This document shows positions 1-61,370 of a stretch of DNA of 64,000 nucleotides, piece by piece. Position numbers and translations under genes: made by a program. The notes under the pieces were generated by a model. The model had not been told where the DNA came from, ran no database searches, and saw nothing but the letters and a program-made list of their open reading frames with translations. The stretch spans positions 69,440,001 through 69,504,000 of the forward strand of contig OZ024741.1 of the NCBI GenBank assembly GCA_964016885.1, read 5' to 3'. Source of the stretch: Eledone cirrhosa. Lineage: Eukaryota. Each line of letters begins with the position of its first letter. Position 1 is the stretch's first letter.

Positions 1-720
1 CATAAAAGATGTAGTGGGATCACAGGTAAGCTAACTAAGAACATAGATTTTACATGTGGCCGGTGCTCTGGTGCAATAAGTAGCAGCAAGTGCCCACAAA
101 ATACTAGCTCCTTCAACTGCGCAGAGGGTTCTATAGAAATAGTGGACAGCTTCCGTTATCTGGGTGACAAAATCAGCAGTGGGGGAGGGTGCTCTGAAAG
201 TACAGTAGCTAGAGTCAGAACTGGATGGAAAAAGTTCAGAGAGCTTATACCACTATTAGCCGCTAGAGGGTTCTCCCTAAAAATGAAAGGCAGGTTATAC
301 GATGCCTGCATACGAACAGCAATGCTGCATGGCAGTGAGACCTGGGCATTGTGTGCAGAGGATATACGCAGACTAGAGAGGAACGAAGCTTGCATGCTCC
401 GCTGGATGTGCAATAGTAATATACGTGAACGGCAAAGCATAAACGAACTAAGGAAAAAATTAGAAATAAGAGGGATCAGATGTTGTTTACTCGAGAGAAG
501 GCTACGTTGGTACGGTCACGTGATGCGCATGAAAGACGACAGCTGTATAACAAAGTGCAGGGCAATAAAGATAGACGGTAGCCACGGAGTAGGCAGACCC
601 AGAAAAACATGGGACGAGCTGATAAATTCCGACCTCACACGCTTACACCTCTCCAAGACAATGTCACTGGACCGAGACCTTTGGCGGTACTCAGTAATAG
701 AGAAGACCCGCCTTACCTAA
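1..720 (+). mobile_element. RTE-clade LINE, C-terminal part of the RT ORF (open from window start)
   Basis: Frame 1 is open from base 1 (HKRCSG...FTCGRC...IVDSFRYLGD...ARVRTGWKKFREL...LHGSETWAL...RRLRWYGHVMR...GRPRKTW...DRDLWR) to the stop at 718-720; these are RTE-clade RT C-terminal motifs. Confidence 0.9.
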
Positions 721-3100: not shown

Positions 3101-3292
3101 TTTTATTTTATTTTTCCTTTCCTTCTTCTTTCTCCAGCCTCACTTTCATATAGATTGCATTTTTGTTTTTTAAAATCCAAATTCAATAAACAGACCAGGA
3201 TTTTTTCATTCTGAGGATTGAAAGCAAAATCTTTTGCTTTTAAGAAACCACGGGTAAATGGAATAATTGCCTTATGTTGTTTATTACATAAC

Positions 3293-5042: not shown

Positions 5043-5125
5043 GGGACTTATGACCACCACAAGTGTGTTACCATTCAAATGGAACTATTTGGAAAAAAAT
5101 ACAAAATCCGATTGGACCTTAACAA
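5043..5125 (+). CDS. ADAM-family metalloprotease prodomain exon A (mind-meld/UNC-71/ADAM11-22-23-like)
   Basis: ttgttatacAG acceptor and GTAAGT donor; 83 nt, GTYDHHKCVTIQMELFGKKYKIRLDLN+aa (phase 2), joining in frame to exon B. Confidence 0.85.
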
Positions 5126-46644: not shown

Positions 46645-48310
46645 ACTAAGCTGTTTATTTTAAAGTGTTTATATTTATCTAAAATCCTTCATTAGAATTT
46701 TAAATAAAGACATTTATGTTTGAAACACCAACTTAAAAACAAGGAGGTTATTTTACTAAATTTTGCAAATTATTGATTATTTTCAAAATTATTTGAAAAT
46801 CAAAGACATTGTCTTTCATTAGAAACATGGTAATGAAAGGGGTTAATATAGTTCAAAATGTGTATTGTTGTTTAGCAGTAGATCATCTCTGATTAAACAA
46901 TCATCATCAACAGCAGTTTTCCCTTGAAAATTACTATGACCCTATATTGATATTTTTGTATATCTGAGACTACATTGCCCACTGCAACATTCTTTTCTAA
47001 AACAGTAGGGAGACCCGGCTACTTTTTCTGCCTAGTCGAGCAACCACATAGAGGGAGGCTCAATGAGCATATAATAGGTGCCGTGCTCTATTTTTGCAAG
47101 CAGTATTCTAGTGAAAATTGTATTGAATTGGTAGATGTTAGCAACTATATTAGACCACCTACCATTTCTCTTTGAGATGAAAGAATTGAGTGAGAAAATC
47201 TAAAACAATATAACACAGCTTAGAAATGCAGTTCCAATATTGTTTCTTGATATTGGAATCCAATATCGGTTTCTTAATTGAAATTAAATCTACAGAACTC
47301 AAAGTTGTTCAAGCATTATTTCCAGATTAAATATATATATATATACATTTTTTTTCTTTTGTTTTTAAGGAATTTTTCTTTTTTTTTTAGCAATTCAATC
47401 GACCACTTTGTTAGTTTGATAACCTACACTTCTGTTGTTTAAGATTTCTGCACAACTGATGTTCTTAAGAGAAGCATTAATATCACAACTTCATATTTGT
47501 ATAAGTAATACTTCATATTGGCAGTCATTAGGACATTGGAGAGAATGCTTTGCAGCATTCATGACAGCTCCCTGCGCTCTGAGTTTAAAACCCACCAAGG
47601 TCAACTTTGCCTGTCATCCTTTCAGGTACCAGTTCAGTACTGGAATCAAGTCTTCTTCTATATCTCTTTCTCACTTCTTCTCTATTACTATTTTTTTTTT
47701 CTCTGTCTGGAAAAAGTAGCTGTGTTCAGATATGGAGAAGGATGGGCTCTATCATGTTTAAAATGTCCAGTGTATGTCACAACAATGTCCCTTTATACTC
47801 CCTTAGGATTTACAGTCCCATCTGATATGAATACTTCATGTATTACTTTGATAGGGGCAGATATGTATAATGAAGGAGAAAGAGGTGCCTTTTGGTCGTG
47901 GCTGACCATGTGTTTGCATTTAGAAAGTTCCTCTCCCATACACAAGCCTGGGCAAGAAGTTTTGTTGGAAGACCAGCAGTCCCTCAAGCATGCCAATTTC
48001 CCTTTCCATGTCACCAATGTTGTTCAGAAGAAAGGTAATGGCTAATACAACTTGGCACTAGTGAAGTTGCAACTCATTCTTTCCAGTTGAGTGAACTGAG
48101 GCAACATGAAATTAGGTGTCTTACTTAAGGATACACCCTGTTGTAGGAGAAAAACCCTGAACACCCCTGCATAACTAAAAGTGGACTAGGCAAAATGTCT
48201 ATAAATAATAACATGAAGTGAACTGTGAGTAGACTGTATACAGACTCTAGTTGGTAGTTCAAAATCACGTCTGGTGAATACTTAATTTTACCTTCGTTTG
48301 TACAGATATA

Positions 48311-49364
48311 CTAAACCAAACTCCTCACAACCTCATGATTGTTAGTTCAACACTGATCACTAAACCAAACTCCTCACAACCTCATGACTGTTAGTTCAAC
48401 ACTGATCACTAAACCAAACTCCTCACAACCTCATGACTGTTAGTTCAACACTGATCACTAAACCAAACTCCTCACAACCTCATGACTGTTAGTTCAACAC
48501 TGATCACTAAACCAAACTCCTCACAACCTCATGACTGTTAGTTCAACACTCTGATCACTAAACCAAACTCCTCACAACCTCATGATTGTTAGTTCAACAC
48601 TGATCACTAAACCAAACTCCTCACAACCTCATGACTGTTAGTTCAACACTGATCACTAAACCAAACTCCTCACAACCTCATGACTGTTAGTTCAACACTG
48701 ATCACTAAACCAAACTCCTCACAACCTCATGACTGTTAGTTCAACACTCTGATCACTAAACCAAACTCCTCACAACCTCATGATTGTTAGTTCAACACTG
48801 ATCACTAAACCAAACTCCTCACAACCTCATGATTGTTAGTTCAACACTGATCACTAAACCAAACTCCTCACAACCTCATGACTGTTAGTTCAACACTGAT
48901 CACTAAACCAAACTCCTCACAACCTCATGACTGTTAGTTCAACACTCTGATCACTAAACCAAACTCCTCACAACCTCATGATTGTTAGTTCAACACTGAT
49001 CACTAAACCAAACTCCTCACAACCTCATGACTGTTAGTTCAACACTCTGATCACTAAACCAAACTCCTCACAACCTCATGACTGTTAGTTCAACACTCTG
49101 ATCACTAAACCAAACTCCTCACAACCTCATGACTGTTAGTTCAACACTGATCACTAAACCAAACTCCTCACAACCTCATGACTGTTAGTTCAACACTGAT
49201 CACTAAACCAAACTCCTCACAACCTCATGACTGTTAGTTCAACACTGATCACTAAACCAAACTCCTCACAACCTCATGACTGTTAGTTCAACACTGATCA
49301 CTAAACCAAACTCCTCACAACCTCATGATTATTAGTTCAACACTGATCACTAAACCAAACTCCT
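48311..49364. repeat. 49/51-bp minisatellite, 21 full copies, probably SINE-head derived
   Basis: Unit ctaaaccaaactcctcacaacctcatgactgttagttcaacact(ct)gatca; 16 x 49 + 5 x 51 bp accounts for the span. Confidence 0.95.
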
Positions 49365-50252: not shown

Positions 50253-50342
<90 letters not shown>

Positions 50343-50650
50343 CTTCTTTAAAAATATACCCATCTTTCTACCTTATTTCAAAGTTATTTATTATATTTAT
50401 TATATTCTACATCACTCCTAATTTCTAACCCCTAATCTGTACCTTTTCTCACTGTGCCTAACATACAAACAATTATTACACAATACACCATATTCTTACT
50501 TCATATCACCTTGAAAAAATCCTTCGTAAACAAACATTTTTTGACGTTAGATTATTCATCCTCTATTCATTATTTTTTTCTCCCTTTCATCTAACTTATT
50601 CATGCTCATCTCACAATATATCCTTACTTACAGTACTTCTGTTTTTTTAA

Positions 50651-50944
50651 TAATACATATCAACATTTTCTTTCCATCGCACATATTATTAAACCCTTAA
50701 ATATTATTCTTAATACATATTAACATTTTCTTTCCATCGCACATATTATTAAACCCTTAAATATTATTCTTAATACATATTAACAATTTCTTTTCATCGC
50801 ACATATTATTAAACCCTTAAATATTATTCTTAATACATATTAACAATTTCTTTCCATCGCACATATTATTAAACCCTTAAATATTATTCTTAATACATAT
50901 TAACAATTTCTTTTCATCGCACATATTATTAAACCCTTCAATAT
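50651..50944. repeat. 60-bp tandem repeat, about 5 copies
   Basis: Units align in register on consecutive 60-nt lines. Confidence 0.95.
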
Positions 50945-51298
50945 ACAAACCTTAACTTTACATTATTTTTCTTTTCGTTAATTTTCAAATTCTTTTAATT
51001 TATACATTATCTTCCAACGGTTTTCAACCTCACTATGTAAAACAATATATTTTTCTCAGTTATAAAAGCTATCTCTCTCTCTCTATCACCCATCTCTCCT
51101 CCTATCTCATCCTTCCTCACTATACTCCTCCCCCTCCACTTTTTACTCTCATCTCCTCCTCTTTTTCATCCTTTCCACCCCCCACCCCCTCAAAATTTTT
51201 TTTCCCAATATCACACATCAATCAAAAACTACTTTTCATATGTTGATTTAAAACTGCACTATCCACAAGTGTTTTTTAACCTTCATATCATGTCCTCC

Positions 51299-51369
51299 TA
51301 TTTTATCTGATGAAAACACAAATGTTATTGCATGATGATATTTGTTTTTGAAATGCGCATAATAAAATA
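51299..51369 (+). ncRNA. Minimal type I hammerhead ribozyme motif
   Basis: tattttat-CTGATGA-stem II (16 positions, 1 mismatch, loop gcat)-GAAA-tgcgca-TA-ataaaata; stem I is a perfect 8 bp. Confidence 0.8.
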
Positions 51370-51399
51370 CATGGAACTCATTTAACCATCTTTTGATCT

Positions 51400-51430
<31 letters not shown>

Positions 51431-52178
51431 GTAAAAAATTGAACGGGAACAAAACAGAGAGGCAGTACGAACAAAGGTTTATTAGTTTCACGCTCTTGAG
51501 AGTGGGGTGGTGGTGGGGAACGACATTTCGGGCATAAGCCCTTCTTCAGGTAAAAAGTGTGTGGGAAGAGAGTTCCAAGGGTGTGTAGGGGAGTGGTGGA
51601 GAGAGATATAGCAAAAAGGGGGTGAGAGGAAATGGTGCAAATGAAATTAAAAATAAAGGCATGATCAAAATAAAATTAAAATGGAGTAAAACAGGTGGTG
51701 GAAGGGTGTGGGGCATGTAGGGGTGGTGGCGGGTGGAGTGGGAAGAGGGAGACGGGGTGTCCGAGCAAGGAGGGCTGAAGGTGGTGTGTGTGTGTAGGTG
51801 TACATGTGTGTGTGTATGTGAAAGCAAGGGTTGGGGGAAGAACGGGGTTGCATGTTCAGGAAGAGGTGTGTGTGGGTTGCGGTGTAGGTCGGAGTGTGTG
51901 TGCGTGTGTGGATAGAGAGGTGGGGGGAGAGGATTCCGGAGGCTGAATGTGTAAATATGTGGTGGTACGCACGTGTGTGTGTGGTGTTTATGCGTGTTGT
52001 GGATGTAGGTGGCGTGTGGGGAAAAAAATGTTTTGGGGTGTATGTCCGGGGGTGAGTCGTAAAGGTAATTCCGTAAAAGGATGTGGTGGAATGCTGAGTA
52101 AAATCCTTGGGATGCGGTAGATTCTCAGGATCAAGGTTCACATATGTGTAATCCGTGAAGAGATTGGTCGGAAGAGGG
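51431..52178 (-). mobile_element. Probable Penelope-like element 3' fragment between (TA)n tracts
   Basis: Minus strand carries ctgaagaagggcttatgcccgaaatgtc followed by aataaa; no recognisable ORF motif. Confidence 0.5.
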
Positions 52179-55351: not shown

Positions 55352-56480
<1,129 letters not shown>

Positions 56481-59392: not shown

Positions 59393-59459
59393 GGAACTGC
59401 TGTCTAAGGATATTGTTGTCAAACAATACATGAACAAGAATCAACAAATTATTTTGAGA
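59393..59459 (+). CDS. ADAM prodomain exon B
   Basis: ctctcttctctttcAG acceptor and GTAAGT donor; 67 nt, g+ELLSKDIVVKQYMNKNQQIILR; its only open frame matches the phase of exon A. Confidence 0.9.
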
Positions 59460-61287: not shown

Positions 61288-61370
61288 AATGTCGAGCACT
61301 GTTATTACCATGGCAAGGTCAAACGAGATGAATGGTCAAGTGTTGCAGTCAGCACATGTAATGGGATCAG
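61288..61370 (+). CDS. ADAM prodomain exon C
   Basis: ttgttcAG / GTAAGA; 83 nt, NVEHCYYHGKVKRDEWSSVAVSTCNGI+ag; HCYYHG...STCxG is the hallmark of the M12B propeptide. Confidence 0.95.

Follow-up and report, generated by a model that had tools for sequence, protein, structure and literature searches.

The stretch of DNA analysed here (the window) comprises 64,000 nucleotides of Eledone cirrhosa (assembly GCA_964016885.1, contig OZ024741.1, positions 69,440,001 to 69,504,000, forward strand). Within what is likely a long intron of an ADAM-family gene, it holds the 3' end of a Penelope-like element (PLE), and near this end lies a hammerhead ribozyme motif with the following parts.

51299-51369, plus strand: type I hammerhead ribozyme motif, whole, 71 nt (sequence and motif scans)
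51299-51306 paired with 51362-51369, plus strand: stem I, 8 bp (scans); a common variant, A>G at 51300, gives a G-U pair
51307-51313, plus strand: catalytic core C3-A9, CUGAUGA; between subfamilies only N7 (51311) varies
51314-51349, plus strand: stem II, consisting of 3 bp, a conserved C-pyrimidine mismatch (51317/51346), 12 bp and a 4-nt loop
51350-51352, plus strand: core G12-A13-A14 (sequence and scan); GAAA spans 51350-51353
51353-51360, plus strand: helix III, a self-complementary octamer; a weak hairpin, or 8 bp between two copies
51361, plus strand: position 17, end of the AUA triplet, with predicted cleavage 3' of it (sequence and established hammerhead numbering)

An earlier note, made from the letters of the window, had placed the core, stem I, stem II, a palindromic stem III (ugcgca) and the AUA triplet here and a (TA)n tract about 40 nt further downstream; sequence and scans recover all of them, the tract being found at 51400-51430. 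The two strands of stem II (51314-51329 and 51334-51349) run over 16 positions with three G-U pairs and one C-U mismatch, amounting to 15 bp. Helices I and II surround the core and the open ends lie in helix I, which is the type I layout, and the motif has the corresponding CUGANGA, GAA, A15.1-U16.1 and H17, with U15.2-A16.2 giving the AUA triplet. The label 'minimal', also used in the note, does not hold. According to excerpts of the defining paper, minimal PLE hammerheads have no helix III, a stem I of 4-5 bp, an extra base after A9 and a G10.1-C11.1 pair (PMC4209133), whereas in the present motif helix III is palindromic, stem I measures 8 bp, stem II follows A9 directly and G10.1-C11.1 is absent. 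Its likeness is rather to the hammerheads of the Hydra clade and to those with a palindromic helix III.

No Rfam hammerhead family was matched by the motif, either at the gathering threshold or at E 10, because of its AUA triplet and the conserved mismatch in stem II; six weak Rfam matches to snoRNA and UTR families lie far under threshold and were rejected. The folding energy of the motif alone is unremarkable as well (z -1.35, with 25 of 200 shuffles equally good). Both results would fit a motif arisen by chance, or no more than a palindrome of the DNA in an AT-rich region, a reading to which we return with the comparison of copies.

The motif belongs to a short, non-coding remnant of an element, bounded by (TA)n on both sides.

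50256-50342, no strand: (TA)n at the 5' junction; its right-hand portion belongs to the element itself, as an internal TA run
~50308-51414, plus strand: 5'-truncated PLE copy, consisting of 3' untranslated region/pseudo-LTR only, with neither coding sequence nor tail
50651-50944, plus strand: 60-bp tandem array of 4.9 units in the element's 3' untranslated region, found in other copies too
51400-51430, no strand: (TA)n at the 3' junction, common, tail-to-tail, to a second PLE on the minus strand

A genomic copy search for a link to Penelope reverse transcriptase (RT) and GIY-YIG sequences, or for tandem retrozyme arrays, had been proposed in the note. The first of these was found: in eight of the 20 long loci fetched, the motif is present in direct orientation on either side of an RT + GIY-YIG frame. 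Two of the 20 have intact frames, of 794 aa (L099) and 797 aa (L112), with YRDD and IY..YFG motifs that we take to be the signatures of RT and GIY-YIG; a Pfam search gave no match for either element protein. The full-length unit measures 3,627 nt and carries the motif twice: once ahead of the frame, with the predicted cut 216 nt upstream of the start codon, and a second time some 1 kb beyond the stop codon. A unit of this length that codes for protein, and a motif that is single at 51299-51369, are at odds with a tandem retrozyme array. The single RT + GIY-YIG frame, the pseudo-LTRs with hammerheads, the tandem and inverted insertions and the tail at one end are all traits of EN+ PLEs. The window motif is thus the 3' hammerhead of a 5'-truncated copy of a young Penelope-like element.

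The element protein has DKT in place of DKG (SDKT, residues 122-125 of one frame), a CxCx5C linker, no CCHH finger, and CxxC and CxH around conserved E and N residues (in the L099 copy, D stands in place of the E); the element inserts into (TA)n. These are published features of the Hydra clade, as given in the available text of PMC8557442, and membership of this clade is likely from the protein sequence. The RWK motif near the N-terminus reads RWI here, with RW in register; its third residue is K, R or E among 11 homologues, one of which is without the W. Database searches returned 34 homologues of the protein in other organisms, 30-43% identical, none with an informative name.

Several other repeats occur in and around the window. 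The 3' end of the second PLE occupies 51431-~52190 on the minus strand, tail-to-tail with the first across the (TA)n at 51400-51430. Its own motif, near 51515-51549 (minus strand), is a true minimal hammerhead, with an extra A, a G-C-rich 4-bp stem II and no helix III. C15.2 is present in 18 of 19 related loci, the window copy having T. Loci related to this second element encode an endonuclease with CCHH and a CxxxxCxxC linker, which, from these motifs, is presumably Neptune-like. A third hammerhead, at 3204-3263 (plus strand) before (TA)n, has a GUA triplet and an 11-bp stem II and belongs to a young repeat family, of which two of 25 loci have Hydra-type N-termini (RWK, DKT) inverted beside them. 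The window also contains an 81-bp tandem array at 13478-16018 (31 units, 97% identity, one minus-strand frame open for more than 400 codons), a 49-bp tandem array at 48310-49364 (21 units, 97% identity), a LINE reverse transcriptase frame of 447 aa at 36885-38225 (minus strand; RVT_1, E 5e-39), pieces of a mariner-type transposase at 55447-56010 (minus strand) and the likely C-terminus of a LINE at 1-717 (plus strand). A Pfam search with 92 frames of the window returned RT and transposase pieces only. An unrelated abundant repeat, with MITE-like nested inverted copies about 0.5 kb apart, was seen elsewhere (L035, 3170-3450, and L045-L068).

The family is very abundant. The 3' half of the motif (a 23-mer) has 23,143 exact matches in the genome (control 0) and a 15-mer just downstream of the motif has 26,201 (control 18), compared with only 202 for a 27-mer of the element's 5' untranslated region; nearly all copies must therefore be 5'-truncated. 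In a DNA search in which 40 of 771 candidates were scored, 18 matches, the window copy included, are identical over 171 nt. A sister-family motif that agrees in stem I and in the AUA triplet adds 46,698 exact matches (control 0), so that the two groups together reach at least 69,841 exact matches in the 3.0-Gb genome, or about one per 43 kb.

The ends of these copies record how they were inserted. At the 3' side, 14 of 30 copies end without the tail of about 90 nt, 14 have it and two read through, and in 40 of 54 inverted pairs just one of the two ends carries a tail. At the 5' side, 75 matches were surveyed, taken from the first 70 of 1,191 listed and their neighbours, of which 25 proved to be indels or substitutions and 50 truncations. 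No pile-up was seen at the predicted cleavage site, where two of the 50 truncated copies begin (one of them resembling a small deletion); relative to the cut, 10 starts fall in -3 to 0, 17 in +1 to +4 and 10 in +5 to +8. Among 30 copies that retain 5' untranslated region, moreover, 22 read through the cut site and one starts exactly there. Read-through together with the lack of an end pile-up implies a template of uncut or re-ligated RNA, two options that these data cannot separate, and the genomic ends argue against linear, cleaved RNA as the usual template. In the first 25 Mb of one contig, many head-to-head pairs of the family's 3' ends lie 215-245 nt apart, which suggests either that inversion prefers a certain point or that a short derivative propagates itself.

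Comparison of copies indicates, first, that the variation common to subfamilies respects the fold. In 180 deduplicated copies (a sample biased towards copies near the window copy in sequence), all eight stem variants common to at least six copies keep pairing, and N7 is the sole core variant common to subfamilies; rare stem substitutions keep the pair in 11 of 78 cases. All eight common variants go into or out of G-U, a pair that exists on the sense strand only. The probability of eight out of eight is 2e-5 with the mutation spectrum of the flanks and 0.004 with transitions only, values that are optimistic because changes within a subfamily are linked. Rare substitutions, by comparison, run at about 1% per site alike in core, stems and flanks, as expected for young dead copies.

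Secondly, the sister families have changed both sides of several pairs. Across 118 distinct motifs out of 233 copies, tabulated without alignment, two-sided changes are found at stem II pairs 2, 3, 5 and 6 and at pair 3 of helix III. Position 4 of stem II is unpaired in 116 of the 118, nearly always as C-U or C-C, and the first stem II pair (10.1-11.1), directly after A9, is A-U in 87 and G-U in 29. The central pair of the palindrome is complementary in 114 (C-G in 75, U-G in 27 and U-A in 12). Helix III thus covaries; in the window motif it is predicted to be unstable as a hairpin and stable only between two copies. In an alignment of 18 rows, from which five bulged sister motifs were left out, 98.6% of the cells pair; its covariation score was reached by none of 500 shuffles and its number of two-sided pairs by 77 of 500, a control that related sequences can beat without any structure. 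At all three loci checked, the sister motif lies downstream of an endonuclease 45-48% identical to that of the element. Further hammerhead families with stem II regions of 45-55 nt and palindromic helices III of 8-12 nt were also encountered (L324-L343, L308, L313, L338), one of them near a third Hydra-type endonuclease.

Lack of covariation in homologous copies had been named in the note as evidence against a ribozyme; the pairing-keeping stem changes (8/8) and the two-sided changes in stem II and helix III are the opposite outcome. Selection acting on the sense strand maintains both stems and core. The copy number, the position in the element and the covariation show that the motif is not a product of chance. 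A chance arrangement or DNA palindrome, for all the unremarkable folding z-score and the missing Rfam hammerhead match, has next to no probability given the fixed position in the element, the strand-specific G-U variation and the two-sided covariation.

Our preferred interpretation, which we hold to be probable, is that this motif, which lies in the terminal repeat of a PLE copy both truncated and non-coding, acts on the element's own RNA, cutting after 51361 (the site predicted from hammerhead numbering) by way of copies paired through the palindrome. In a transcript of tandem elements, the upstream and downstream hammerheads would join in an 8-bp helix III, and an RNA of unit length would be set free. 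A copy standing alone, like that in the window, would be silent for the most part, and introns could for this reason tolerate sense copies. The RNA serving as template for insertion would have an intact site, being either an uncut precursor or an RNA that was cut and re-ligated (circular), and the element protein would prime reverse transcription at (TA)n, with two start points about 50 and about 140 nt past the cleavage site.

Computed energies are consistent with the dimer step. In the monomer fold, stems I and II have a mean pair probability of about 0.88 and helix III of 0.0; closing helix III would cost 2.9 kcal/mol, compared with -10.5 for the octamer duplex, and the active-form dimer is predicted at -32.7 as against -21.2 for two monomers. 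The complementarity of the central two bases in 114 of the 118 motifs likewise suits a dimer and not a hairpin loop. Energies and covariation of the central palindrome together make dimer dependence plausible. Of seven sequencing runs available as contigs, the two RNA runs (share 0.05) do not cover the motif and thus speak neither for nor against cleavage. Against it count the 3.6 kb between the two partner hammerheads of a unit and the pair 10.1-11.1, which is A-U or G-U and not G-C. The sister palindromes, moreover, form weak duplexes in these calculations (-2.2 to -3.2 kcal/mol), and dimer gating may hence not be general. In published excerpts, other PLE hammerheads were inactive alone and weakly active as dimers (PMC4209133), and that of an anole PLE cut only with protein added, its mutants leaving insertion in vitro unaffected (PMC11167929).

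The weak sister duplexes would also fit a ribozyme that is active as a single copy, its weak helix III being offset by a tertiary contact (formed by the long stem II, the C-pyrimidine mismatch after its third pair and the U-rich stem I) or by a protein chaperone. That position 4 of stem II stays unpaired in 116 of 118 motifs while its neighbours covary, that stems I and II already form at about 0.88 in the monomer, and that protein-dependent cleavage has been published for another PLE (PMC11167929, excerpt) all speak for such a ribozyme. We nevertheless regard it as rather unlikely: the probability of helix III is 0.0 in the monomer ensemble, the central two bases remain complementary across families although a hairpin loop would not need this, and no tertiary partner was identified.

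The insertion ends raise the further question of whether the fold is mainly a binding or template signal for the element protein, with negligible cleavage in vivo. Inserted copies retain the uncut site, reverse transcription begins just downstream of it, and the anole hammerhead mutants, according to the same excerpt, still insert in vitro (PMC11167929). A protein signal of this kind seems improbable to us since the unpaired core is fixed, with N7 alone variable, across families whose proteins are 45-55% identical, which is the pattern that catalysis requires, albeit that the fixation in the sister families is partly built into the search patterns.

The surroundings of the element are those of a gene on the same strand, of which the following parts could be recognized.

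5043-5125, plus strand: likely upstream host exon (ADAM prodomain), with AG/GT ends and continuous frame; no Pfam match alone
5126-59392, plus strand: likely intron, 54 kb, of an ADAM-family metalloprotease gene, inferred from exon candidates, frame continuity and downstream ADAM domains
59393-59459, plus strand: likely downstream host exon, with AG/GT ends and continuous frame; no Pfam match alone
61288-61370, plus strand: likely host exon from the splice-site scan, with AG/GT ends and continuous frame; no Pfam match alone

The host exons come from splice-site scanning only: five exon candidates submitted singly to Pfam gave no match, and a search for the prodomain family found nothing at the window locus. 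The candidate at 61288-61370 presumably carries an ADAM prodomain-type motif. A reprolysin match (E 7.9e-6) lies 9 kb past the window end; disintegrin-type exons and a sub-threshold match to the ADAM cysteine-rich domain likewise occur downstream. From the plus-strand exon candidates and these downstream ADAM exons, the sense placement in a giant intron that the earlier note had proposed is probably correct. The weight put on it there seems misplaced, as dispersed copies of the window motif number more than 20,000, and the position in the intron is probably incidental.

A copy that is intact and lies sense in what is likely a 54-kb intron could conceivably have been adopted by the host for splicing or abundance of the ADAM transcript. 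We find this very improbable: the 171-nt identity to 17 other loci (among the 40 of 771 scored) means that intactness reflects youth, and other hammerhead-like motifs occur in the same gene region in both orientations. The window copy, identical as it is to many others in the genome, shows no sign of a host role. Another locus (L382, 5037-8355, minus strand), some 55-58 kb beyond the window, has eight identical hammerhead cores with a period of 474 nt, the layout of a non-LTR retrozyme array, apparently antisense between two likely ADAM exons.

A bolder version, which we think unlikely, would have the motifs form a distinct AUA-cleaving subtype of at least about 70,000 copies, in which the mismatch replaces the loop-loop contact and which cuts host pre-mRNAs, alone or in trans by way of its palindrome. 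If this were true, retroelements with the AUA subtype would influence how giant introns are processed throughout the genome. Many copies are intronic, and an orientation bias among them could reveal whether such ribozymes cut host transcripts.

Hammerheads have been known in PLEs since 2014 (PMC4209133) and in the Hydra clade since 2021 (PMC8557442), as the available text of these papers states, and the basic finding was therefore to be expected. New are the family, the AUA triplet with its long stem II and conserved mismatch, the abundance and the genomic evidence on the template. The triplet and the mismatch extend the known range of natural hammerheads. A literature search on hammerheads with octopus, cephalopod, Penelope or Hydra found no paper on the window family, and the main text of a 2026 repeat annotation of Octopus vulgaris, as far as available, has neither hammerheads nor Hydra (PMC13282606); a search on the triplet preference of hammerheads likewise yielded no paper. 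For the job of hammerheads in PLEs, the Eledone cirrhosa genome offers an unusually good test set: several families are young, full-length copies survive intact, covariation has arisen naturally, and the ends of insertions numbering in the tens of thousands record the copied RNA.

Of the known systems, the Hydra-clade PLEs described in the available parts of PMC8557442 are most readily compared. Shared with them are the single frame with C-terminal GIY-YIG, a sense hammerhead near the 3' end, (TA)n targets, and inverted 5'-truncated partners with a tail at one end. The unit is longer here (3.6 kb, with a 3' region of about 1 kb, as against under 3 kb), as is the tail (about 90 nt, as against 30-40 nt). 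All 26 Hydra hammerhead rows listed there have C15.2-G16.2 (GUH) and a stem II of 3-7 bp, in contrast to AUA and 15 bp in the present family. The N-terminus aligns by eye with the excerpt of Hydra-1_Obim, for which no pLTR and four copies ending at one site are listed (PMC8557442), compared with more than 20,000 copies here. The family is distinct from Hydra-1_Obim and has a different hammerhead.

The PLE hammerheads of 2014, in the available text of PMC4209133, resemble the present ones in being of type I, in lying in terminal repeats, in their long helix II and palindromic 15.2-16.2, in occurring mostly as dispersed single copies, and in the predicted dimer mechanism. The 4+4 palindromic helix III and the 8-bp stem I set the present motif apart from the minimal class of that paper and place it in the palindromic-helix-III variant class.

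The anole PAc Poseidon element, as presented in excerpts of PMC11167929, likewise has two 3' end points past the hammerhead that define a tail, an apparently uncut template and AT-rich targets, and the two classes of 3' end observed here match its two starts of reverse transcription. It belongs to another clade, its ribozyme was assayed, and its start codon lies inside the hammerhead; in the present element the start lies 216 nt past the predicted cut.

Finally, non-LTR retrozymes also contain type I hammerheads in high copy number, dimer-dependent in amphibians, with 126,247 motifs in axolotl and about 5,000 in mussel according to the text available (PMC7229834; bioRxiv 10.64898/2026.07.22.740005). 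The count of at least 69,841 reported here is lower than that of axolotl (PMC7229834) and higher than the approximately 9,000 motifs given for Xenopus tropicalis in PMC4209133. Retrozymes, as described in excerpts of PMC7229834, are non-coding tandem repeats of 150-450 nt, whereas the present motif is single at its locus and part of a protein-coding element.
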